Of a stretch of 64,000 nucleotides of DNA, positions 3,299 to 48,449 are shown piece after piece (the first letter of the stretch is position 1; the number at the start of each line of letters is the position of its first letter). Source of the stretch: Escherichia phage JLBYU50; sequence record OK272470.1; one strand, 5' to 3'. A program made the translations under genes and the position numbers. Under the pieces are notes generated by a model that was given only the letters and a program-made list of their open reading frames with translations, made no database searches and had not been told where the DNA came from.

Positions 3299-5260
3299 GT
3301 GATTTTAACACGTCCAAATAGTGCCATTGCAGACATGGTAGAGTCTCGCTATAGAAAGCGTAGAAGTTTTGCAAGTGGTTTTACCTTAAGAGATGCTCGT
3401 GAAGCATTGCTCTTTGAAGCTGACGGTAACTACTATCAGTGGAAAGGTTCTCTACCTAAAGTTGTACCTGCTAACTCTACTCCTACATCTACTGGAGGGA
3501 TTTCAGATACAGCTTGGAAAAATGTGGGTAATGCAGATGACATTGCTCAAATAGAATCAGAATTAGATGCTATTGAAGCTGAAATTGAAGATCTTAGAGA
3601 ATCCATTCCAGAAGCTGGTAAATCAGCTTACCAGATTGCCGTAGACAATGGTTTCCAAGGTACTGAGACAGACTGGTTGGCTTCTTTAAAAGGTGATCCA
3701 GGTGCTCCATTAAAGCTGCTAGGGACGCTATCTAATACCAACCAATTACCTACAACTGGAAACAATGCAGGAGATGCATGGATTGTAGGCGAGAATATGT
3801 ATGCTTGGGATGGTACTGCTTGGAGAAAAGTAAACTCACAGGGGCCAGAAGGTAAATCAGCTTATCAAGTTTGGCTTGCAGCAGGAAACCAAGGTACAGA
3901 ACTAGATTATCTTGCTTCAATTAAAGGTGATAAAGGGGAACCTGGCCCAGAGGGGCCACAAGGTGTGCCAGGTAACAATGCTAATGGTTTTGATTACCAA
4001 GGTGCAGCTAATTCCGTTTCAGATCTTCCTTCTGCATCTCCTGGAAACACATCTCAAGCATGGAGTATTGGTACATATCTATACGTGTCAAACGGTGTAG
4101 AATGGATCAATATGGGCGCTATAGTGGGGCCAAAAGGAGATAAAGGCGACAAAGGAGATAAGGGTAACACTGGTGATTCTGCTTATCAAGTCTGGTTAAA
4201 TGCTGGTAACGTTGGTACTATTGACGAATATATTGCCTCTCTGAAAGGAGAAAAAGGTGATAAGGGAGACAAGGGTGATCAAGGTGAGCAGGGTATACAA
4301 GGCTTGACGGGGCCAACTGGTGCAGGGTTGACAATTATTGATATTCTGACTGACACTTCTGAACTACCACAAACTGGAGAAGATGGTGATGGTTATCTGA
4401 TCAATAATGAACTTTGGGTTTGGTTGCAAGGAGCCACACAGTGGACAAATGTTGGTCGTTTAGCTGGTACTCCAATCACTGCAAAAGGACACGTTGCGTC
4501 TGCAAGTGCACTTCCTCCTACAGCCAATTACGGTGATGCTTATCTGACGGAAGATACAGGTCATCTTTACATTTACACCTATGATGAACAAACTCAAACT
4601 GCTGAATATGTAGATATGGGTAGTTTGAAAGGTGATAAGGGTGAAAAAGGTGACGCTGGTACTAACGGTACAGACGGTGCAACTTGGATTGTTAAAACAA
4701 CAGATCCAATCTCTAGTGATGGTAAACAAGGTGATTATGCCTTTAATATCTCCACTGGCGAGGTGTTCTTAAAAACATCTGCAACTGCCTGGACTTCTCA
4801 AGGTACACTGCCTAGCATCACAGATGCACCTAGTGACGGTAAAATTTATGCTCGTAAAGATGGAGCATGGGAAGAACTCACTAGTTCTGTAGATGGTCAA
4901 GATATAGTTCCAACAAAAGTAACAGCTAATTTTATAGAGGTTACAGCATACACCAACAACTCTGTTACAGGTGACTGGACACCTCCAGGAACACATAACA
5001 TGAATGTGTTGAATCTTACTGGTAACGCTACTATAAAAGCATGGCCTGGTGTCGAAGATAGCACAAAACCTAAACCATTCTCTGCAATAGTTTATCTTAT
5101 CCAAGATGCCACTGGGGGTCATACTGTTACTTTAGATCCATCTTACAAAGTAATTGGTTCTAGTGATATTAATACAGATCCTAACGGAGTAACAATACTA
5201 CAACTAACATATTGTGGTATTGGCGATTACGTGGATGCTATTGTTGCTAAACGCACATAA
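3299..5260 (+). CDS. Tail fibre protein with collagen-like G-X-Y repeats
   Basis: 653 aa, GTG start after RBS aaaggag. Collagen-like tracts (GDKGEPGPEGPQGVPG; GPKGDKGDKGDKGNTG; GEKGDKGDKGDQGEQGIQGLTGPTG). Module KSAYQ(V/I)..AGNQGTE.DYLAS(L/I)KG repeated 3 times. Terminator at 5264-5288. Confidence 0.7.
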   Translation: MILTRPNSAIADMVESRYRKRRSFASGFTLRDAREALLFEADGNYYQWKGSLPKVVPANSTPTSTGGISDTAWKNVGNADDIAQIESELDAIEAEIEDLRESIPEAGKSAYQIAVDNGFQGTETDWLASLKGDPGAPLKLLGTLSNTNQLPTTGNNAGDAWIVGENMYAWDGTAWRKVNSQGPEGKSAYQVWLAAGNQGTELDYLASIKGDKGEPGPEGPQGVPGNNANGFDYQGAANSVSDLPSASPGNTSQAWSIGTYLYVSNGVEWINMGAIVGPKGDKGDKGDKGNTGDSAYQVWLNAGNVGTIDEYIASLKGEKGDKGDKGDQGEQGIQGLTGPTGAGLTIIDILTDTSELPQTGEDGDGYLINNELWVWLQGATQWTNVGRLAGTPITAKGHVASASALPPTANYGDAYLTEDTGHLYIYTYDEQTQTAEYVDMGSLKGDKGEKGDAGTNGTDGATWIVKTTDPISSDGKQGDYAFNISTGEVFLKTSATAWTSQGTLPSITDAPSDGKIYARKDGAWEELTSSVDGQDIVPTKVTANFIEVTAYTNNSVTGDWTPPGTHNMNVLNLTGNATIKAWPGVEDSTKPKPFSAIVYLIQDATGGHTVTLDPSYKVIGSSDINTDPNGVTILQLTYCGIGDYVDAIVAKRT

Positions 5261-5263
5261 TCA

Positions 5264-5288
5264 AAGCCCCTTCGGGGGCTTATTGTTT
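5264..5288 (+). terminator. Rho-independent terminator after collagen-like fibre gene
   Basis: AGCCCC-TTCG-GGGGCT followed by TATTGTTT. Confidence 0.55.
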
Positions 5289-5299
5289 AAGGAGATTAA

Positions 5300-8119
5300 A
5301 TGTATCCTATTCCTTTATTTATGTCAACAACATCAGCTTCAGTAGTAACAGCTACATCTATAACCACTTCCTCTATTGGTATTGCAATAGTTGGTAGTAA
5401 AAAGCAACTGACATACACAGTTTCACCGGAAGATGGTGCGTTATTTGATATAGCTTTTTCATCTTCAGATAATACCAAAATGGTTATAGATAATAGTGGT
5501 ATGATGGAGTTTGTTGCCGAAGGTGGTTTTGATGCAATAATGACAGCTAAAAATAATTTAGGTGCTGTCTTAACTGATCAATCTGGTGGTTATGCTTCAG
5601 AATTAAGCGTGTACACTGAAAGTCTATCAGCTATGGATGTAGGCACTACTCAACAGTTGGTTGCTACAATCAGTCCAGAAGGTGCTAAAGATCTTCCAGA
5701 CATGGTAATTACGTACACCACAACAGATCCAGAAGTAGCTACTGTAAGCCCTACAGGATTAATAACTGCTCTTAAAGATGGTAATTGCCGTATAGGTTGT
5801 ACTGCAACTTATCAAGGAACAGTGGTGGCCTCTGATAGTTCTTATTTAGGTGTTAATGCTATTCCTGTTATTTCTAATGTAACAGCCGTGGCAAACAGCT
5901 ATGGAGACGTTCGTGTTGCTTGGGATGTAGCTGATCCGCTAGATGGTGATACTTATACTGTAGAAGTATTAGATTTAAGTAATAATAGTGTTCAGTGGAC
6001 TACAACAACCACGAATACTTACGCTTACTTTGATATCTCTGACTCTATTCCTCTTTATGGGTTTGCTCCAACATACCTTAAAATTAGCGTTAAGAGCACC
6101 AAAGCAGCAGCCGTTATCTTTAATAACTCAATAGCTACAGATGATTCGTTCATTAAAGAAGTTATTGTTTTTGCTGGACAAGATAACGTAAATGCACACT
6201 TTACAGAACTATCTGGTGCAAATAAAGCAGCAATGAGTAGCACAACAGCCCGTAATGCATATGCTACGCAACGTGGTTTAGCAAATGCTGAAGTTCTTCC
6301 GTTAAATACAGCTTCTGGATCATCAGCAGCAGATAAATATGCTGACGATAAAGCTGGAACAGGTACACCAGACAACTACTGGTATGATCTGGATAACACA
6401 GCAGATGGGCCATGCTTAACTAACTTTATCACTAAAGTCACACCTTATGCAAGTAAGGTTAAAGCCATTATTTGGGGACAAGGTGAAAATGATGCTGTAT
6501 CATCATCTTCAACTGTTGCAGGTAGATACAGTAACACTACACGTTACCATGATGCTACGATAGCTATCTTTGATAAGATGCGTACAATAGTTCCTGCTTC
6601 TCAAGCAAAAATTGTTTGGCAGATCCTGGGACGTTCTTATTTATATGGTGTAGAAGTTAATGGTGTGGATTGGCAGAAGTACAGAAATGTACAAAGAACC
6701 ATCTCTACAGCACGTGATGATGTTATCATTGGTTCTTGGGTAGATGGTGCTGAACGTTACAGTGGTTATGTTTATGAAGAAGGTATTGATGGTCGTATCC
6801 ATTATATTTCTTCTGTATACCAAACAGCAGCTACAAAACTTGCTAAATCAGCAGCAGACGGTACAGACCTAACATCAACGTCACCTGTTTGGGTTGATAT
6901 GGCTGTTCCAACTGGAGCAACAGCTACTTCCCAATCTAATCAAGATACAATTTTAGTATGGGATGCTCAAGGCTATAGTAAACACTACTTCCGTAATATT
7001 AACGTCTTAACAGCATCTGTATTAACTGAACAAACGCTTAATACGAACAGCTATACGTTTACCTATGCAGATCAAGTAGAACAATATGGTTTTGCAGCAG
7101 GAACTACTATATTTGATGTTGCATATTATGATGAAGCAAATGATGTGTTATCTCCTTTAGTACGTTTTAATGTTAACGTTACAGCAGGAACCGTAGAAGA
7201 TAAACCTGTAGTGATGGATTATGATTTAACACAAGAAACTCTTCCATCAGATGTTAAGGTTAATGGTGGGAACTCTTTTGCTCGTGCTTCTGGAGATACA
7301 CTTGTAGCCACTAACACCTTGGTTGCTCCGTTGGAGTATGTTGGCACTACCCCTGTAGGTAGACGTGTAACAGCTAACACAGCTACACAAATTTTTGTCA
7401 ACAACGCCTTAACAAGCGCAAGCCCGTGGGTAAAGACCAACTTAACTGTTTCAACTTCATCTGATAAATCTCCGGCTGGAACTACTGCCAATGTATTCAA
7501 ATTAACTCCGACTACAACATCTGGTAGTCATATCTTAACTGCAACATATACTAACGCGTACAACATATATGCCGGACGTAACTGGTCTGCCTCTGTTTTC
7601 TTGAAAGCGAACGGGATTACTAAGGCCAAACTAAGATTAAAAGCAGGAACTGAAGTTAATGAGGGTACTTTTGATTTAGCAGCAGGTACATTTACAGGAA
7701 GTGAAGCTAATATTATATCTATGGGTAACGGTTGGTATCGTGCTATTCTGCATAAAACAGGGATAGCCAAACAGTCCTCCATAAGTTTTGAAATAATTGC
7801 CTTGGATGCAACTGGTGCGGAGATTTTCGCTGGGGATGGTACTAGTAACCTTGCAGTTTGGTTGCCACAGCTTGAAGGTGCTCCTACAGGAGAAACATCA
7901 AAAGCTGGAGCGCCTTATGTCTGCACATATCCTGGAAGTTTAGGAGGAGTATCCTTCACTATACCAAGGAACGGACATACTGGTGTGGATGTTTACTATT
8001 CCAACGGGGACGTTGTTCGTGACGTATTCTCTGGTACGGCATCTACTTGGACAATAAACTACTCCAGCTTGTACGATTGGGGATCAGTCTTTATTACAGG
8101 TTTGAAATATTACGACTAA
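5300..8119 (+). CDS. Tail fibre / adhesin with Big_2 (bacterial Ig-like) domain and possible degenerate SASA/SGNH-esterase-like region
   Basis: 939 aa. Big_2-like segment (VITYTTTDPEVATVSPTGLITALKDGNCRIGCTATYQG). Motifs FAGQDNV and IIWGQGENDA resemble GQSN / QGE(S/N)D blocks of sialate-O-acetylesterase-type domains. Terminator at 8124-8151. Confidence 0.6.
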   Translation: MYPIPLFMSTTSASVVTATSITTSSIGIAIVGSKKQLTYTVSPEDGALFDIAFSSSDNTKMVIDNSGMMEFVAEGGFDAIMTAKNNLGAVLTDQSGGYASELSVYTESLSAMDVGTTQQLVATISPEGAKDLPDMVITYTTTDPEVATVSPTGLITALKDGNCRIGCTATYQGTVVASDSSYLGVNAIPVISNVTAVANSYGDVRVAWDVADPLDGDTYTVEVLDLSNNSVQWTTTTTNTYAYFDISDSIPLYGFAPTYLKISVKSTKAAAVIFNNSIATDDSFIKEVIVFAGQDNVNAHFTELSGANKAAMSSTTARNAYATQRGLANAEVLPLNTASGSSAADKYADDKAGTGTPDNYWYDLDNTADGPCLTNFITKVTPYASKVKAIIWGQGENDAVSSSSTVAGRYSNTTRYHDATIAIFDKMRTIVPASQAKIVWQILGRSYLYGVEVNGVDWQKYRNVQRTISTARDDVIIGSWVDGAERYSGYVYEEGIDGRIHYISSVYQTAATKLAKSAADGTDLTSTSPVWVDMAVPTGATATSQSNQDTILVWDAQGYSKHYFRNINVLTASVLTEQTLNTNSYTFTYADQVEQYGFAAGTTIFDVAYYDEANDVLSPLVRFNVNVTAGTVEDKPVVMDYDLTQETLPSDVKVNGGNSFARASGDTLVATNTLVAPLEYVGTTPVGRRVTANTATQIFVNNALTSASPWVKTNLTVSTSSDKSPAGTTANVFKLTPTTTSGSHILTATYTNAYNIYAGRNWSASVFLKANGITKAKLRLKAGTEVNEGTFDLAAGTFTGSEANIISMGNGWYRAILHKTGIAKQSSISFEIIALDATGAEIFAGDGTSNLAVWLPQLEGAPTGETSKAGAPYVCTYPGSLGGVSFTIPRNGHTGVDVYYSNGDVVRDVFSGTASTWTINYSSLYDWGSVFITGLKYYD

Positions 8120-28908: not shown

Positions 28909-29286
28909 TTATTTCAGTTTGTAAACAATTACATTTAAACCTTTGTTTACTAGAGTTTCTTCGATCATAAGTTTTACAATATTCCAAGAACCTCCAGCCA
29001 AACCACAACCAAGCATTGGTAAACCTACAATTTTACCGCCTGAAGATACAACATCGTCTCCCATACTATCTAGCGCATTGTAGATAGCTTCATAATTCAG
29101 GTCACGCTTACCTTCCTCACGACGACTATAACCATATTGTCCATATAAATTATAAATTGTCAAATTGTTTTCTGTATATTTGGTAAACGTACCTAATTTT
29201 TTATAATCACCACGTTTAGTGGCACAATCTGCTTTAAACGCACCAGGCCACTTGCTTTTAATTTTTGGTGCAATACCACTACCCAT
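28909..29286 (-). CDS. Hypothetical protein with weak macro-domain-like Gly-rich motifs
   Basis: 125 aa. MGSGIAPKI and GCGLAGGSW loosely resemble the phosphate-binding loops of macro (ADP-ribose-binding) domains. Shorter than a canonical macro domain; tentative. Confidence 0.3.
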   Translation of the reverse strand: MGSGIAPKIKSKWPGAFKADCATKRGDYKKLGTFTKYTENNLTIYNLYGQYGYSRREEGKRDLNYEAIYNALDSMGDDVVSSGGKIVGLPMLGCGLAGGSWNIVKLMIEETLVNKGLNVIVYKLK

Positions 29287-30232
29287 AGTGCAAAAACAGT
29301 TGAAGATGCTCTTCTCCTGACTTATGGTCTACAGCTACAACATAACGATTACCGCTAAACAAACCTTGTGCTGTCATACCGTCAATATCGGTATCTGCCG
29401 AAACATCTCCTGTACGATCTACACCGTTAACTTTCAGGAGTTTAACTTCTTTTGCAGCATAGCGGTGTTCAGTAATACTGATACCCATTAATGCAAGTGC
29501 ATCAGAGAATTTGTCATTAGGGTAACGGTTAAGTTCTTCTACTAGTGACTGAACAATATCAAAGTTCAAGTCCACGGAAAGATTATAAAGCGTTTCAAAA
29601 TCTGGTAAAAAGGCTTTGTTCTCCAGATTTTTAGCCAGATAGTCATCCATAGTAGCTTTAGGTAGTTTCTTATAGCTAAAGCTGTAGAAAATACGGCTAG
29701 GACGATTACGCAAAAATTCTGATACATAACCATCATTTTTAGTCAATACAAACAGCTTGTCATAGCCACCAACACCATCCAGCAGGGTAAGCAAACCATC
29801 CTGTGCATCTTTTTCAGCATACAGTTTATCAAATTCATCGATCATAATCATCACAGGTTGTGTGATTTTAGACATAAAATTGATAAAGCCTTCACCATTA
29901 AAAGCACTACCGATAGAAATAGTAGGAATACCCATTTCACGAAGAGCAGAAGATAGCATTTTAGCTTGCAAAGTTTTACCGCTACCCTTCGTACCCTCAA
30001 GGAGAACACCTGTGTTTTTACCTTTGCGGCTAAGGAACGTCTTGATAATACGTTCTGATTTATCATCAGTATCACCGTATGTTACTGAAGGGACTTCCAT
30101 ATCGTTTTTAGGATACAGGAAGAACTCACCACTTTGAGTAACACCTACACCAAAAGTTCCTGCTGGAATTTCTTCAATATCTGTACCAGACTTCTGACGC
30201 AGGAAGATTTGATTGCCGAATACTGTAAACAT
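29279..30232 (-). CDS. AAA-family ATPase (paralog A)
   Basis: 317 aa. Walker A GTKGSGKT, Walker B MIMIDEFDK, classical-AAA second region LLTLLDG and NRPSR. About 45% identical by eye to 44210-45337. Confidence 0.7.
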   Translation of the reverse strand: MFTVFGNQIFLRQKSGTDIEEIPAGTFGVGVTQSGEFFLYPKNDMEVPSVTYGDTDDKSERIIKTFLSRKGKNTGVLLEGTKGSGKTLQAKMLSSALREMGIPTISIGSAFNGEGFINFMSKITQPVMIMIDEFDKLYAEKDAQDGLLTLLDGVGGYDKLFVLTKNDGYVSEFLRNRPSRIFYSFSYKKLPKATMDDYLAKNLENKAFLPDFETLYNLSVDLNFDIVQSLVEELNRYPNDKFSDALALMGISITEHRYAAKEVKLLKVNGVDRTGDVSADTDIDGMTAQGLFSGNRYVVAVDHKSGEEHLQLFLHYG

Positions 30233-44209: not shown

Positions 44210-45337
44210 ATGAAATACACGATTTATGGTGATATTGTAAGTGTAAATAAAGATATGGGCGTGGAATCTAACTATCTTCCACCTGGATTCTATACTGTTA
44301 GTCGTGATCCCCTTGGCAATTATTTTTTAAGCCGTGGTAATCTGACAGGTGTACCGGATGTTTTGTATGGTGAAACAGAAAAACGAGCAAATCACGTTAT
44401 CCGTACATTCCATCGCCGGAGTGCACAAGGTAAAAACACAGGCTTGCTTCTGACAGGAACTAAGGGCAGTGGTAAAACTATGTTAGCCAAACTCATTAGT
44501 CGTGACCTTGTAGAAGAAGGTATTCCAACTATTATGGTTACTCAAGCCTACAGTGATGCTAATTTCATTGAACTTATTAGCAAGATCACCGACAAAGCAG
44601 TGATTATTTTTGACGAGTTTGATAAAGTGTATGAGAAGAAACAAGATCAAGAAGCACTTCTCACTTTGTTAGATGGTACTGGCAGTGGTAATAAACTGTT
44701 TATTCTGACTAAAAACAGTGGTTTTATTTCTGAATTCTTTTTAAATCGTCCTAGTCGTGTGTTTTATAATTTTAATTATGATAAAATCTCACTAGAAACT
44801 ATGATTGACTATTTAGATAAAAACCTAGATAACAAAGCACACTTTGATAATTTCCAAAGACTTTGGGATGTAAGTTTAGAGTTGTCCTTTGATGTGATCC
44901 AAGGTATAGTAGAAGAACTTAATTTCTACCCTGATTTATCCTTTAAAGAATGCATCTCTATGATGGGCGTTTCTTTAGGTGGTGGTAATAAATGGGATAT
45001 CAGCAGTGTTGTTATTAATGGGAAACTTCAGAAAGTTAGCTGGGTATCTAGTTGGCATAACTTTACACCTGCAATCTTTTTAGGTGGCTCGTGCACACTA
45101 GACGTGTACTTGTCATCTCCAAGTGATGCAGACTCTAAAGAAGCCCTTGCTAATAGCTCTTACGTGGTTTTTGATGATGAAGGAGATGCTCGAATTCCAT
45201 TGAATGCGACAAAAATGAAAGCAGATCTTATTACAGGCGGTAAAATCGTTGTGTTTAGTGATGATCCAGAAGATTCTTTCCGTATTGTTCTGGAGCCAAC
45301 TATCACCAATGGTGCAACTTTGGCAAGTGTGTTTTAA
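44210..45337 (+). CDS. AAA-family ATPase (paralog B)
   Basis: 375 aa. Walker A GTKGSGKT, Walker B IIFDEFDK, LLTLLDG, NRPSR; colinear with the - strand paralog at 29279-30232. Terminator at 45353-45378. Confidence 0.7.
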   Translation: MKYTIYGDIVSVNKDMGVESNYLPPGFYTVSRDPLGNYFLSRGNLTGVPDVLYGETEKRANHVIRTFHRRSAQGKNTGLLLTGTKGSGKTMLAKLISRDLVEEGIPTIMVTQAYSDANFIELISKITDKAVIIFDEFDKVYEKKQDQEALLTLLDGTGSGNKLFILTKNSGFISEFFLNRPSRVFYNFNYDKISLETMIDYLDKNLDNKAHFDNFQRLWDVSLELSFDVIQGIVEELNFYPDLSFKECISMMGVSLGGGNKWDISSVVINGKLQKVSWVSSWHNFTPAIFLGGSCTLDVYLSSPSDADSKEALANSSYVVFDDEGDARIPLNATKMKADLITGGKIVVFSDDPEDSFRIVLEPTITNGATLASVF

Positions 45338-45352
45338 GTAAGCCAGCAAATA

Positions 45353-45378
45353 AAAACCCGCTTCGGCGGGTTTTCTTG
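45353..45378 (+). terminator. Rho-independent terminator after AAA ATPase paralog B
   Basis: AACCCGC-TTCG-GCGGGTT followed by TTCTTG. Confidence 0.55.
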
Positions 45379-45411
45379 TATTAATACCAGATTTAATAAA
45401 AGGAGTAGTAG

Positions 45412-46404
45412 ATGGGAACACCAAAATCATGGGAACAATATAAAGAAGAATTAACACCTCTTGCTAAAAATCGCAATATTCAAATCCTGGGTTATGTTGG
45501 TGAATGGAAAGGGAATAAAACAAAACTTGATTTGTTGTGTCATTGTGGGTATAGATGGCAAAGTACAGCTATTACGGACTTTAAACGTGGTGGTGGTTGC
45601 CCCAGTTGTAATTTAGATAGCTTACGCAAACGTATAATCATCCCTGACGATCAACACATACAAGATTTCATGAATACTGGCGCTTTCCAACCAGGAACCA
45701 TCTTCATCAATACAGGGGAACGTACTGGAAATAGTGACAGTATTTGGTGTATAAAATGTCCTATTTGCTCATACGACGAATATGTACAAGCTGGAGTATG
45801 TGATGGTAAGTTTTATTCTACAAAGAGTAGTCTTAAAAACGGGAGTCTCGCTTGTCGTTGTTCTACACGTTATGTGTTTAGCGATCAGCAGTTAACATAC
45901 CGCATGAGAAAGGAGTTGCAGAAAAAAGATTTGATTTTTATTGAATGGGTAGGCAAACCTTCTGTAAGATTAGGTAAGTTTAAATATCTTTGTCTTGTAC
46001 ATGGGGAGCAGATAGGGAGTGCTAGTAACTTATTAAGCCACGGTCGAGGTTGTCCTATGTGTGCTGGTCATAGTCAGCAGCAGTTATATATTAATATTGT
46101 TAAGGATGATAATATTATAGTTGCTCTTAAGTTTGGTATAGCTAAAGATAGTGATAGGCGATTAAACATTCAAAATAGCCGTAATCTGTTTTTTATGGAA
46201 CGTATTTGTTTATATGATTTTAGCACAGTGAAACAGTGTAAGGCTGCTGAAAGAGCTATAAAGAAAAAATTAAAAACTGGTATTTTAACAGCAAGAGAGT
46301 TGAAAGACGGTCATACAGAAACAGTAAGTGTTTCTGATTTGGAAAATCTTCAAAAAATTATTACACAATATGGTGGCAAATTAGTATATAGTAAGGAGGT
46401 GTAA
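45412..46404 (+). CDS. Zn-ribbon repeat protein with C-terminal T5orf172/GIY-YIG-like domain
   Basis: 330 aa. Three Cys clusters (CHCGYRW...CPSC; CIKCPIC; GRGCPMC). C-terminal FGIAKDSDRRLNIQNSRNL resembles the T5orf172 motif (IGRT.N...RL...). Tentative. Confidence 0.45.
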   Translation: MGTPKSWEQYKEELTPLAKNRNIQILGYVGEWKGNKTKLDLLCHCGYRWQSTAITDFKRGGGCPSCNLDSLRKRIIIPDDQHIQDFMNTGAFQPGTIFINTGERTGNSDSIWCIKCPICSYDEYVQAGVCDGKFYSTKSSLKNGSLACRCSTRYVFSDQQLTYRMRKELQKKDLIFIEWVGKPSVRLGKFKYLCLVHGEQIGSASNLLSHGRGCPMCAGHSQQQLYINIVKDDNIIVALKFGIAKDSDRRLNIQNSRNLFFMERICLYDFSTVKQCKAAERAIKKKLKTGILTARELKDGHTETVSVSDLENLQKIITQYGGKLVYSKEV

Positions 46405-46956
46405 ATGCGGATTACTGATAAGTATGTGTTCTTCTTTTCAGCAAAAGATGAATTTAGCAACTGGTATCTATCATCTTTTATTGAACCTTTAGCTCCCAAG
46501 TATAATAATTCTATTACAAGTTCTGTTGAATTTACTTGTGTGGAACAATATATGATGTGGAGAAAAGCATGTTTATTTTATGATTACAACATTGCATCTT
46601 CTATTTTAACCGGAGATCTAAGATATACAGGAGAAAAAGAACAAGCATATTATAAGCGACTAGGCAGATTAGTTAAAGATTATGATGAAGATACCTGGAC
46701 TTCTTTACGGGAGAAGATTGTCAAACGTGGTTTGTATCTTAAATACACACAAAATGAAGATCTCAAAAATAAACTTATAGCCTACGCAGATAAGGAGTTC
46801 GTAGAGGCAAGCCCTTATGATTCTATTTATGGTATCAAAATGGGGATGTGGGATCGGGACGTGGAAAATAAGGATTGTTGGAAAGGACAAAATCTTTTAG
46901 GAAAATGGCATACAGACCTTGCTGTTTATCTAAAAGCACAATCTGATATTTCCTGA
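46405..46956 (+). CDS. NADAR-family protein (YbiA-like)
   Basis: 183 aa. Blocks YVFFFSAKDEFSNWY, CVEQYMMWRKACLF, EASPYDSIYGI match NADAR/DUF1768 (F..FSNFY ... EQ.YM..KA ... EASP.D.IWGIG). Confidence 0.7.
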   Translation: MRITDKYVFFFSAKDEFSNWYLSSFIEPLAPKYNNSITSSVEFTCVEQYMMWRKACLFYDYNIASSILTGDLRYTGEKEQAYYKRLGRLVKDYDEDTWTSLREKIVKRGLYLKYTQNEDLKNKLIAYADKEFVEASPYDSIYGIKMGMWDRDVENKDCWKGQNLLGKWHTDLAVYLKAQSDIS

Positions 46957-47395: not shown

Positions 47396-47455
47396 AATGA
47401 GAATCATTTTCGTTTGTAAATGAGAATCATTAGCAAATGAGAATTTTCTCATTTA
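47396..47455. promoter_or_regulatory. Three tandem Fur-box-like sites (AATGAGAATCATT)
   Basis: AATGAGAATCATT at 47396-47408 and 47419-47431, and palindromic AAATGAGAATTTTCTCATTT at 47436-47455. One mismatch from the GATAATCATT core of the enterobacterial Fur box. Confidence 0.4.
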
Positions 47456-47715
47456 GAGAATAACGCGCAGGGGTGGTGTTTGTCTCGCGCTCCCGTGTCC
47501 CCTCGCCATACAATAAGAATAGCATAACCAACAACAAAAGCAAGCGATTATTTTTATCTTTACATTTCTTTACAAATTTATTTTGGACGAGCTACCGGCG
47601 ATCAACCTTCCAACCAGTGCCCCCTGGTATGTTAGCCCCGCCTTTACGCCGTGGGGGTGGCGTTTCCTCTTCTGTATGTAAAACAGTATAAGCCCGATCC
47701 CTGGGCTTGTCAATA

Positions 47716-47982
47716 TTATTTTTTGTTTTCTTGCCAGGATAGGACACCTAACCAAAAATACATGTCGCCCCGCGCCCCTGGCGGGATCTTGCTTTCCCCG
47801 CCGCCACTGCAAGCCCATAGATAACCATTTACGAACGTATCAAAGTGATCTATCTCTTCCACCTTATGATCGCCCAGGTTGAGAACGGTTTCAACCTTTA
47901 AGCCCGTTGCGCTTGCTACCTGGTGCACCGTGCCGCCTTGCCAGCCCAATGAGTGCATGAGATGTAAAGGAGTATTTGTCAT
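47716..47982 (-). CDS. Hypothetical small protein in GC-rich segment (possible HTH regulator)
   Basis: 88 aa ORF, only candidate on the - strand in the early region. Segment GWQGGTVHQVASATGLKVETV is HTH-like. Could instead be non-coding. Confidence 0.25.
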   Translation of the reverse strand: MTNTPLHLMHSLGWQGGTVHQVASATGLKVETVLNLGDHKVEEIDHFDTFVNGYLWACSGGGESKIPPGARGDMYFWLGVLSWQENKK

Positions 47983-48093
47983 GGTATCGCCCTTTCTTTG
48001 ATGTGCGCCCTGGTTGGCGCGGTAGAAAGATAATAGCCGTTTCCTTTATAGATAGCAAGCAAAAAAGAAATGAAAAAAAGATTAAAAAAAATG

Positions 48094-48152
48094 GTTGACG
48101 TTCCTCACCTGGTAGCGTAGTATTCATCTTGTCGAGGGGGCAATAGTGCCGC
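48094..48152 (+). promoter_or_regulatory. Early promoter cassette 1 (TTGACG-17-TAGTAT) with imperfect GC hairpin
   Basis: -35 at 48094-48099, -10 at 48117-48122, imperfect palindrome GGGGCAATAGTGCCGC at about 48136-48152, then RBS and ATG 48177. Confidence 0.5.
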
Positions 48153-48176
48153 TCATAACAGAAGAGAGAAATAATC

Positions 48177-48449
48177 ATGGCATCATATAGCGCATCAATG
48201 ATCGTAACGGGTATCACTGGTAAACCTATGCGCGGTGGCGGATCTTTCGCTAACATCAACATTGACGGGCGTTTATCCCTGGACGCAGCGATCACAGTGG
48301 CACGGGAAACATTTAAAAAAGAATGTAATTTCAATAAACAAGATTATCTCGGTTTCGCTATTGAAAAAACCGCGCGCTTTGTGGATTATAAAAGCCCGAA
48401 AATGATCGACACTACACTAAAAGCGCAAGATGTAGCGTTTTTGCTTTAA
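48177..48449 (+). CDS. Hypothetical early protein
   Basis: 90 aa, preceded by cassette 1 and RBS agagag. Confidence 0.45.
   Translation: MASYSASMIVTGITGKPMRGGGSFANINIDGRLSLDAAITVARETFKKECNFNKQDYLGFAIEKTARFVDYKSPKMIDTTLKAQDVAFLL

Follow-up and report, generated by a model that had tools for sequence, protein, structure and literature searches.

An orphan NADAR gene of the probable anti-DarT1 type adjoining a homing-endonuclease-type gene in Escherichia phage JLBYU50

Two genes lying side by side in Escherichia phage JLBYU50 (sequence record OK272470.1) are probably functionally independent of each other: an orphan anti-DarT1 NADAR gene and a free-standing gene of the homing-endonuclease type. 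We estimate the probability of this reading at about 0.78. The whole stretch of 64,000 nucleotides that was analyzed is further referred to as the window; its source genus is Justusliebigvirus (the phi92/phAPEC8 group). The idea of a counter-defense function for NADAR, put forward in the earlier note on this DNA, is right and is already known: a report of 2025 describes it for a protein of this genus that is essentially identical. Therefore the window is another carrier of this function and not a new mechanism. The features of the locus are as follows.

45353–45374, plus strand: intrinsic terminator that follows the AAA ATPase gene and precedes the endonuclease-type gene
45400–45405, plus strand: Shine-Dalgarno sequence AAGGAG of the endonuclease-type gene, 6 nt 5' of its ATG (read directly)
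45412–46404, plus strand: CapR-zinc-finger/T5orf172 (GIY-YIG superfamily) endonuclease gene of the homing-endonuclease type, 330 aa
45469–46071, plus strand: DNA-binding region with three zinc modules (approximately aa 20–70, 84–151 and 172–220), a hypervariable island
45502–45515, plus strand: 14-bp repeat GAATGGAAAGGGAA, one copy left as a deletion scar (from pairwise DNA alignment)
46072–46401, plus strand: T5orf172 nuclease domain, aa 221–330, with conserved Y226, K240, G242, R250, E280 and E303
46393–46399, plus strand: Shine-Dalgarno sequence AAGGAGG for NADAR, located within the final codons of the endonuclease gene (read directly)
46405–46956, plus strand: adfN-type NADAR gene, 183 aa, assigned by Pfam, 99% identity to the Bas60/Bas62 copies and catalytic residues

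Both open reading frames are genuine, each starting with ATG and encoding 330 aa and 183 aa, respectively. The tight coupling described earlier is exact: the TAA stop codon (46402–46404) is directly followed by the ATG at 46405. The pair was also thought to stand at the start of the early block; instead, it forms the 3' end of a 4.3-kb rightward gene group which begins at about 42.7 kb, past a divergent switch. The upstream AAA ATPase gene is split from the pair by the terminator, which reads AAAACCCGC-TTCG-GCGGGTTTT with a T-rich tail. It is a strong one (a 9-bp stem with five GC pairs in the terminator scan), and its conservation among relatives is 97–100%. The interval from the terminator to the start of the endonuclease gene contains no convincing σ70 promoter. 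In the gene-poor stretch 3' of NADAR, Rfam (evalue mode) and RNA folding yielded only chance-level signals (z-scores −1.2 and −0.4). No paralogs of either gene were detected within the window by tblastn and HMM searches. The macrodomain partner annotated in Bas60 was also sought in the window, which has a deletion at that place.

The NADAR assignment was confirmed by Pfam (PF08719, E = 2.5e-36, 125.8 bits with the cut-off of 35.1, residues 13–168), and phmmer matched the protein to PnNADAR 8BAU with E = 9.5e-13. In the alignment to 8BAU, residues E47, K54 and E134 correspond to E43, K50 and E125, the catalytic residues of PnNADAR (Schuller 2023, PMC11543638); hence the catalytic residues are all present. 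Together with K84 they are invariant in 23 homologs having 35–60% identity. Its identity to both bas60_0111 and bas62_0106 is 99%; the NADAR protein differs from the former in two of 183 residues (N62S and A178T, both conservative and non-catalytic) and from the latter in one. Across 55 records the nucleotide identity of the gene is 96.7–99.5%, and dN equals 0.005. A match to the PADLOC candidate PDC-M42C (E = 1.8e-34) reflects the common domain only. In public records the gene is labeled variously as "hypothetical", "GTP cyclohydrolase II", "DNA methyltransferase" and "YbiA-like N-glycosidase".

The function of this protein is best seen from AdfN^Bas60 (BASEL phages Bas60/61/62), which we infer to be bas60_0111, given that the HMM scan of Bas60 (positions 1–148000) finds a single NADAR. 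Expressed alone in uninfected cells, AdfN^Bas60 neutralized the DarT1 toxin (Johannesman et al., Nat Commun 2025, PMC11825919). The plating-rescue experiment suggested in the earlier note is also already published for this protein, with a divided outcome: on DarTG1 hosts the plating of RB69, T5 and Bas25 was restored, whereas T5 was not rescued on DarTG2 (PMC11825919). All these data come from ectopic expression (PMC11825919), and none is reported from a native deletion in a Justusliebigvirus. Since rescue is seen on DarTG1 and not on DarTG2, the target is guanine ADP-ribosylation by DarT1. Thus the proposed anti-ADP-ribosylation role holds for DarT1 and guanine but not for DarT-type systems in general. 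The window protein and AdfN^Bas60 have the same locus, genus and neighbors, both are orphans, and both retain the intact E/K/E set. Judging from the identity and the conserved catalytic residues, the window NADAR is probably the AdfN^Bas60 ortholog and would have the same activity.

Comparison with other NADAR proteins is consistent with this assignment. AdfN^T4 (T4 gp30.3) and the T4-type phage NADARs belong to the same superfamily and share the proposed removal of DarT1 guanine ADP-ribose. However, they have His instead of the second catalytic Glu and are fully active only with a T-even factor, whereas the window protein has E134, which places it outside the T4-type subgroup, and its ortholog AdfN^Bas60 works without phage factors (PMC11825919). 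DarG1 and DarT1-associated NADAR antitoxins (E. coli C7, Geobacter lovleyi) have the fold family, the chemistry and the guanine-ADPr substrate in common with the window protein. Unlike DarG1, the window protein has neither an adjacent DarT1 nor the typical N-terminal extension, its domain beginning at about residue 8–13. Pfam scans of the NADAR neighbors (the AAA ATPase, the CapR/T5orf172 gene and small hypothetical ORFs) revealed no ART domain of a cognate DarT.

E. coli YbiA suggests a different function, in which NADAR would primarily be a metabolic N-glycosidase acting on riboflavin-pathway intermediates rather than an anti-defense protein. The window protein does pass the cut-off of NCBIfam TIGR02464, "riboflavin biosynthesis intermediates N-glycosidase" (109.8 bits with the cut-off of 73.7), an "equivalog_domain" model under which metabolic and de-ADP-ribosylating roles are not distinguished. 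Its residue 134 is the YbiA-type Glu in place of the T4-type His, and the BASEL annotation of this gene is "putative YbiA-like N-glycosidase". On the other hand, guanine ADP-ribose is removed in vitro by YbiA itself (PMC11125620), and because of this the TIGR02464 match cannot tell the two roles apart. Moreover, the 99% identical AdfN^Bas60 neutralizes DarT1 in vivo and was grouped by the authors with non-YbiA, non-DarG1 bacterial-type NADARs (PMC11825919). DarT1 rescue of cells is provided by AdfN^Bas60 and not by YbiA. Finally, the window NADAR is phage-borne, and no riboflavin genes are fused to it or located nearby. We consider a primarily metabolic role very improbable.

Under the preferred reading, the NADAR protein would act as follows. 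In a DarTG1 host, DarT1 would move ADP-ribose from NAD+ to guanine N2 in phage DNA, so that replication is blocked. NADAR, acting through K54 at the phosphates and through E47 and E134 at the distal ribose, would hydrolyze the N-glycosidic link, so that replicable phage DNA is restored. No partner protein should be required, and thymine ADP-ribosylation by DarT2 should stay untouched.

The upstream gene is most likely a free-standing gene of the homing-endonuclease type, selfish and mobile. Three stretches of its product match the CapR homology domain PF21817 (Pfam, E = 6.5e-30; the best one at residues 84–151), and PHROG 681, "endonuclease", matches with E = 6.5e-65. The C-terminal T5orf172 domain suspected earlier was recovered by its HMM, if marginally (PF10544, E = 3.8e-4, 21.4 bits with the cut-off of 20, residues 232–318); its fold is GIY-YIG-like, and the Tyr, Lys/Gly, Arg and Glu residues are conserved. 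Of the three Cys4 Zn-ribbons claimed for this protein, all three zinc modules are present, but the third one is probably not Cys4. The likely ligands, as judged from Cys and His positions, are C43/C45/C63/C66 in module 1, C116/C119/C148/C150 in module 2 (the CapR motif CxxC...CxC), and C194/H197/C214/C217, that is Cys3His, in module 3. No match was found among PDB sequences at E ≤ 1 (phmmer), nor in NCBIfam or PADLOC. Cleavage and homing are suggested by the fold and the conserved residues, together with the mosaicism and the patchy distribution described below.

The closest parallel is provided by the T5orf172 homing endonucleases gp165/gp174 of ICP1 (Barth et al. 2023; Netter et al. 2021), in which N-terminal CapR repeats are likewise followed by a C-terminal T5orf172 domain; the identity to ICP1 ORF165 is 31% (E ~1e-25). 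Published work on this family describes CapR modules in several copies as well as in-frame deletions of repeats (PMC10448857, PMC8096241), and the window allele resembles ICP1 gp174* in having an in-frame deletion between intragenic repeats. Unlike gp165/gp174, the endonuclease gene is fixed in the genus and single-copy both in the window and in the Bas60 genome, and its homing is presumed. Overall, homologs occur at 639 places in 341 phage records, often in several copies, and their lengths group at approximately 330, 395–430, 465 and 560 aa. PLE CapR shares the CapR zinc-finger module but has no nuclease domain, and ICP1 Odn shares the T5orf172 nuclease domain; both are domesticated derivatives, whereas the window protein retains the full homing-endonuclease architecture. 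Identity to the GIY-YIG nucleases Slx1, At-HIGLE and I-TevI is only 14–17%, and their DNA-binding apparatus differs.

The zinc modules form an island of divergence. Compared to Bas60, Bas62 and PHB05, the module region has 70% nucleotide identity with flanks at 97–99%, and its dS is 0.6–2.0 with the background of 0.07–0.12. We rejected in-situ positive selection as the sole cause of this divergence, dS being 15–20 times the background. Rather, such values point to probable exchange of alleles. The closest allele is that of Serratia phage KKP_3264, relative to which an in-frame deletion of 201 bp (67 codons) at GAATGGAAAGGGAA has removed one zinc module. The alignment to this allele contains a single clean, repeat-flanked 201-bp gap and otherwise 2 mismatches in 993 nt. 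With its three modules the window allele thus stands beside alleles of four modules (KKP_3264, Bas62) and of five (Bas60).

The endonuclease gene is adjacent to NADAR in all 55 Justusliebigvirus records. A synthetic "empty-site" query, with the 3' end of the ATPase gene joined to the 5' end of NADAR, detected no endonuclease-free Justusliebigvirus; empty sites were found only in more distant contigs. One of them, L026, lacks the endonuclease gene although it is collinear with the window (amino acid identity 74% for the ATPase and 56% for NADAR). The phage contig L015, otherwise unrelated, has only these two genes in common with the Bas60 genome; there they lie within 750 bp of each other in the reversed order. 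L024 is collinear with L015 yet lacks its endonuclease gene. This presence/absence polymorphism at collinear loci, together with the spread over unrelated phages, fits mobility of the endonuclease gene. In both genera of Stephanstirmvirinae the two genes are neighbors, while the abutting junction is genus-specific, and in phAPEC8 two ORFs separate them. The linkage in Stephanstirmvirinae and in L015 exceeds the expectation for random insertion.

These data bear on the suggestion, made in the earlier note, that the two genes are a functional anti-defense or DNA-repair pair, in which, for example, the zinc-finger nuclease would recognize or process ADP-ribosylated DNA or bring NADAR to DNA. Such cooperation would agree with the invariable adjacency in Justusliebigvirus, the abutting stop and start codons with the NADAR Shine-Dalgarno sequence inside the nuclease gene, the retention of both genes in the sister genus, and their proximity in L015. 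In addition, the NADAR gene of Vequintavirinae adjoins genes of an HNH endonuclease, an exonuclease, a ligase and endonuclease VII. However, each gene is found without the other. Phage records that bear a NADAR number 716. NADAR stands without the nuclease gene at four metagenomic loci (L024–L027, including a syntenic relative), and in six annotated NADAR phage lineages no CapR/T5orf172 gene is present within 4 kb. Conversely, seven of the eight distant endonuclease loci (L016–L023) have no NADAR within 5–6 kb; one of these seven adjoins a NUMOD4/HNH homing endonuclease gene and DNA polymerase A, and the surroundings differ across the eight loci. The order and spacing of the two genes vary as well. 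AdfN^Bas60 alone was sufficient in uninfected cells and for three unrelated phages (PMC11825919). Finally, the DNA-binding region of the nuclease evolves as a specificity domain of a homing endonuclease, while NADAR is nearly invariant. Given the membership in a homing-endonuclease family, the independent occurrence and the variable arrangement, the functional pair is not supported, and we regard it as quite improbable. As the stop and start codons abut, the dependency of NADAR on the endonuclease gene is architectural rather than biochemical.

Functionally independent genes could have come together as follows. A string of CapR-type zinc modules would read a long DNA site, and the C-terminal T5orf172 domain of the GIY-YIG fold would cut it. 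In the ancestor of Justusliebigvirus, a member of this family, which would travel among unrelated phages, may have reached fixation at the place between the genes of the AAA ATPase and NADAR. Later it would have been diversified by swaps of DNA-binding modules of ancient divergence and by loss or gain of modules through repeats. Translation of NADAR would now initiate from the ribosome-binding site that the inserted gene supplies at its 3' end.

A purely selfish element should decay once it is fixed, and since the endonuclease gene is fixed and intact with conserved catalytic residues, the phage may derive some benefit from it. It is conceivable, although we think it unlikely, that the upstream gene is not an actively homing element but a domesticated nuclease or DNA-binding protein, either an Odn-like exclusion nuclease directed against co-infecting relatives or satellites, or a repressor similar to CapR or I-TevI, which provide the regulatory precedents. 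Apart from the intact state of the gene in 55 of 55 genomes, purifying selection on the catalytic residues agrees with domestication, and the contrast between the conserved nuclease domain and the hypervariable recognition region has the pattern of an arms race. Moreover, the Justusliebigviruses inny and muut have Odn-like RepA_N-T5orf172 genes, for which a role as anti-satellite nucleases has been proposed (PMC10448857). Yet an active homing endonuclease with shifting specificity predicts the same signatures, and the protein has neither a PADLOC match nor a known target. The presence/absence polymorphism and the spread over unrelated phages fit mobility, and the high dS of the modules suggests exchange of alleles instead of in-situ positive selection alone.

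A more specific form of mobility, which we hold to be rather doubtful, is that the endonuclease recognizes a site located within the conserved NADAR gene or beside it, and co-conversion during homing carries the anti-DarT1 gene between co-infecting phages. The linkage would then not be accidental, and recognition of such a site would explain why related copies precede NADAR in Stephanstirmvirinae but follow it in the unrelated L015 lineage. In that case the hypervariable zinc modules would track escape of the target site.

For annotation, the analysis allows one to name the NADAR gene adfN and its neighbor a T5orf172/CapR homing-endonuclease-type gene. Two observations are modestly new. Firstly, the neighbor is fixed in the genus, yet its DNA-binding modules form an island of deep divergence with repeat-mediated module loss. 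Secondly, related endonuclease copies stand on either side of NADAR in unrelated phages. If the endonuclease indeed targets or mobilizes the NADAR locus, this would be a concrete case of homing endonucleases spreading anti-defense genes; with homing at the NADAR site, a selfish nuclease would serve as the vehicle that spreads a counter-defense gene.

The window was assigned to Justusliebigvirus (Stephanstirmvirinae, phi92/phAPEC8 group) by megablast; the nearest record is Serratia phage KKP_3264 (98.6% over 4 kb). The studied locus contains the following features.

45353–45374: canonical intrinsic terminator in the 74-bp spacer 5' of the endonuclease-type gene
45412–46404, plus strand: endonuclease-type ORF, 330 aa
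46393–46399, plus strand: strong Shine-Dalgarno sequence AAGGAGG within the final codons of the endonuclease-type gene, preceding NADAR
46405–46956, plus strand: NADAR ORF, 183 aa, abutting the endonuclease-type ORF

The 74-bp spacer also contains the AAGGAG of the endonuclease-type gene. The tight coupling reported in the earlier note (stop 46404, start 46405) was confirmed by reading the sequence: the TAA at 46402–46404 is directly adjacent to the NADAR ATG, and the Shine-Dalgarno sequence lies inside the upstream gene. The pair is not, as had been proposed, at the start of an early block. It forms the 3'-end of a rightward gene group that starts at about 42.7 kb, past a divergent strand switch, and no convincing plus-strand ORF was found in the ~1.2 kb 3' of it. 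A GC-rich stretch 3' of NADAR (47435–48155, together with the ORF 48177–48449) has GC content up to 0.57 versus 0.37 in the genome. The 47435–48155 segment is 92% identical to phAPEC8, a sister-genus phage, at the nucleotide level, while neighboring protein genes are only about 68–71% identical between the genera, and the proteins only about 60–70%. It contains no convincing plus-strand ORF and has no Rfam match, and the RNA folding z-scores (−1.2 and −0.4) give no signal. An 88-aa minus-strand ORF (47716–47982) is intact in both genomes, its amino acid identity equaling the nucleotide identity (92%). A regulatory or ori-like function may account for this segment, as may recent transfer.

The assignment of 46405–46956 to the NADAR family passed the HMM check, with a Pfam match well over the threshold (E=2.5e-36). 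The protein differs in two of 183 residues from bas60_0111 of the BASEL phage Bas60 (PaulScherrer) and in one residue from the copy in Bas62, another BASEL phage; the gene is 96.7–99.5% identical across 55 records (dN=0.005). Residues were mapped by alignment with the crystallised Phytophthora NADAR 8BAU, with roles taken from Schuller et al. 2023. The equivalents E47, K54, K84 and E134 (E43, K50, K75 and E125 in 8BAU) are unchanged in 23 of 23 homologs with identity of only 35–60%. An HMM scan of Bas60 positions 1–148000 revealed exactly one NADAR, and therefore we infer that bas60_0111 is the anti-DarT factor AdfN^Bas60 of Johannesman et al. E134 is the YbiA-type Glu, whereas the T4-type AdfN has His at this position. 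This agrees with Johannesman et al., who do not group AdfN^Bas60 with the T4 cluster (PMC11825919).

In uninfected E. coli, expression of AdfN^Bas60 by itself is enough to neutralise DarT1 toxin (Johannesman et al., Nat Commun 2025, PMC11825919). On DarTG1 hosts the protein allows RB69, T5 and Bas25 to plate again, and it leaves the thymine-specific DarTG2 defence unaffected (PMC11825919). Hence the suggested role of NADAR in ADP-ribosylation counter-defence is already known, having been published for a 99% identical ortholog, and the window protein is predicted to be such a factor specific to DarT1 and guanine. It also passes the cut-off of NCBIfam TIGR02464 ("riboflavin intermediates N-glycosidase"), which explains the labels "GTP cyclohydrolase II" and "YbiA-like" in public records. 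This match is no argument against the counter-defence role, since YbiA, too, cleaves ADP-ribose from guanine in vitro (PMC11125620). Labels of the 97–99% identical gene vary between "hypothetical protein", "GTP cyclohydrolase II", "DNA methyltransferase", "N-glycosidase" and "NADAR family protein". Four "Campylobacter phage" records (A145, A150, A110a, C3) are ~98% identical to these coliphages at the NADAR gene, and thus their host label looks doubtful. In PADLOC, the window NADAR hits the candidate-defence component PDC-M42C (E=1.8e-34), and in NCBIfam, weakly, the "DS32_2 NADAR family anti-phage protein" (26 bits versus a cut-off of 240), so that NADAR domains appear on the defence and counter-defence sides alike.

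Compared to Bas60 and the related phage PHB05, the window has a unique 2,459-bp deletion (28909–30232, minus strand, junction 29301/29302); this junction was found in none of 54 related phage records. All 54 relatives have a Macro-PRTase-HAD module, most of which the deletion has taken out: the N-terminal 114 aa of the macrodomain protein, the whole ComF-like PRTase_3 gene, the HAD hydrolase gene and two small ORFs are missing. An AAA ATPase has also lost its C-terminal 76 aa. A truncated ATPase ORF of 317 aa and an overlapping 125-aa ORF still covering most of the Macro domain remain. Therefore a second ADP-ribose/NAD-related module of this phage is gone or disabled, while NADAR has been kept. 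The truncated ATPase (29279–30232) is a 47% identical paralog, ~15 kb away, of the AAA ATPase at 44210–45337, just 5' of the endonuclease-type gene. Both have only generic AAA/P-loop matches in Pfam and weak P-loop matches in PADLOC, and labels in public records include "FtsH-like protease", "ATPase or Zn metalloprotease" and "ATPase". Bas60 (MZ501100) further encodes a sirtuin-family protein, PRPP synthetase and nicotinamide phosphoribosyltransferase (107000–107812 and 143141–145839, outside the span of the window); thus, in addition to NADAR and the macrodomain gene, the lineage has several others related to NAD or ADP-ribose.

In the upstream ORF, Pfam identifies three stretches of CapR homology (E=6.5e-30). 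All three zinc modules expected from the earlier note are present, but one is Cys3His rather than Cys4. The T5orf172-like C-terminal domain was recovered as well, by a marginal Pfam match, and PHROG 681 "endonuclease" matches at E=6.5e-65. This architecture is exactly that published for putative homing endonucleases of the ICP1 type, with repeated CapR zinc-finger DNA-binding modules (CxxC...CxC motif) and a C-terminal T5orf172 domain of the GIY-YIG superfamily (Netter 2021, Barth 2023). Homologs were found by tblastn at 639 places in 341 phage records, including ICP1 ORF165, a T5orf172 "putative homing endonuclease" (31% identity). The AF2 model, for which 20 homologs were used, has high confidence (mean pLDDT 90), and Y226, K240, G242, R250, E280 and E303 show little or no variation among homologs down to 26% identity. 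The gene is a further member of an already known family.

The window allele is distinguished from the closest one (KKP_3264) by two point mutations and a single clean deletion of 201 bp (67 codons), which lies between two copies of GAATGGAAAGGGAA and removes exactly one module. In-frame deletions between intragenic repeats are known in this family (Netter 2021, Barth 2023). The protein has 390 aa in Bas62 and 467 aa in Bas60, and lengths of database homologs group at about 330, 395–430, 465 and 560 aa. Identity to Bas60, Bas62 and PHB05 is 97–99% in the flanking genes and ~70% in the central DNA-binding region, no higher than to the sister genus. The dS values versus Bas60/Bas62 are 1.5–2.0 for residues 76–155 and 0.17 for the nuclease domain, against the background of 0.07–0.12 for the ATPase and NADAR. 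Therefore the modules derive from anciently diverged alleles exchanged by recombination; on this difference in dS, local positive selection was rejected as the sole source of their divergence.

The endonuclease-type gene is fixed within Justusliebigvirus (55 of 55 records): the halves of a synthetic empty-site query were far apart in all records and contiguous in none. The sister genus (phAPEC8) retains both genes (49% and 59% amino acid identity) with two small ORFs between them. No CapR/T5orf172 gene was found within 4 kb of NADAR in six annotated NADAR lineages (Seunavirus, Mydovirus, Certrevirus, Kayvirus, Pecentumvirus, Pamexvirus), and NADAR was absent within 5–6 kb of the distant endonuclease homolog at seven of eight loci on metagenomic contigs. 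In Salmonella SSE121, Klebsiella KpS8 and Cronobacter CR8 (L005–L007, about 4001–6100), the NADAR homolog directly precedes genes for a small HNH endonuclease and for an exonuclease, and this Vequintavirinae block also holds DNA ligase, endonuclease VII and DNA polymerase subunits, a nuclease-rich neighborhood different from that in the window. A 157-kb contig (L026) is collinear with the window (ATPase 74%, NADAR 56% amino acid identity) and has three tiny ORFs instead of the endonuclease gene between them. An otherwise unrelated phage contig (L015) is the exception: NADAR and the endonuclease gene are all that it has in common with the entire Bas60 genome, and they stand in reversed order (NADAR, two ORFs, endonuclease gene). 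A contig collinear with it (L024) has NADAR and lacks the endonuclease gene. At one of the seven loci lacking NADAR, on the metagenomic contig SRR13494270_106 (L023:5271–7218), a 37% identical CapR/T5orf172 homolog adjoins a NUMOD4/HNH_3 homing-endonuclease gene and is next to DNA polymerase A; this typical homing-endonuclease island supports mobility of the family.

Two unrelated backgrounds thus have related endonuclease copies flanking NADAR, upstream of it in one and downstream in the other. We consider it improbable that the endonuclease has its target in the NADAR region or mobilises the NADAR gene along with itself. Patchy presence at collinear loci, spread over unrelated genomes and multi-copy occurrence are typical of a mobile homing-endonuclease gene; these features and the activity of AdfN^Bas60 on its own argue against a biochemical partnership. 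Of the anti-defence or repair pair initially proposed, the NADAR counter-defence part stands; the partnership does not, as the linkage dissolves beyond Stephanstirmvirinae and AdfN^Bas60 acts alone. The gene at 45412–46404 is most likely of homing-endonuclease type and not a partner of NADAR.
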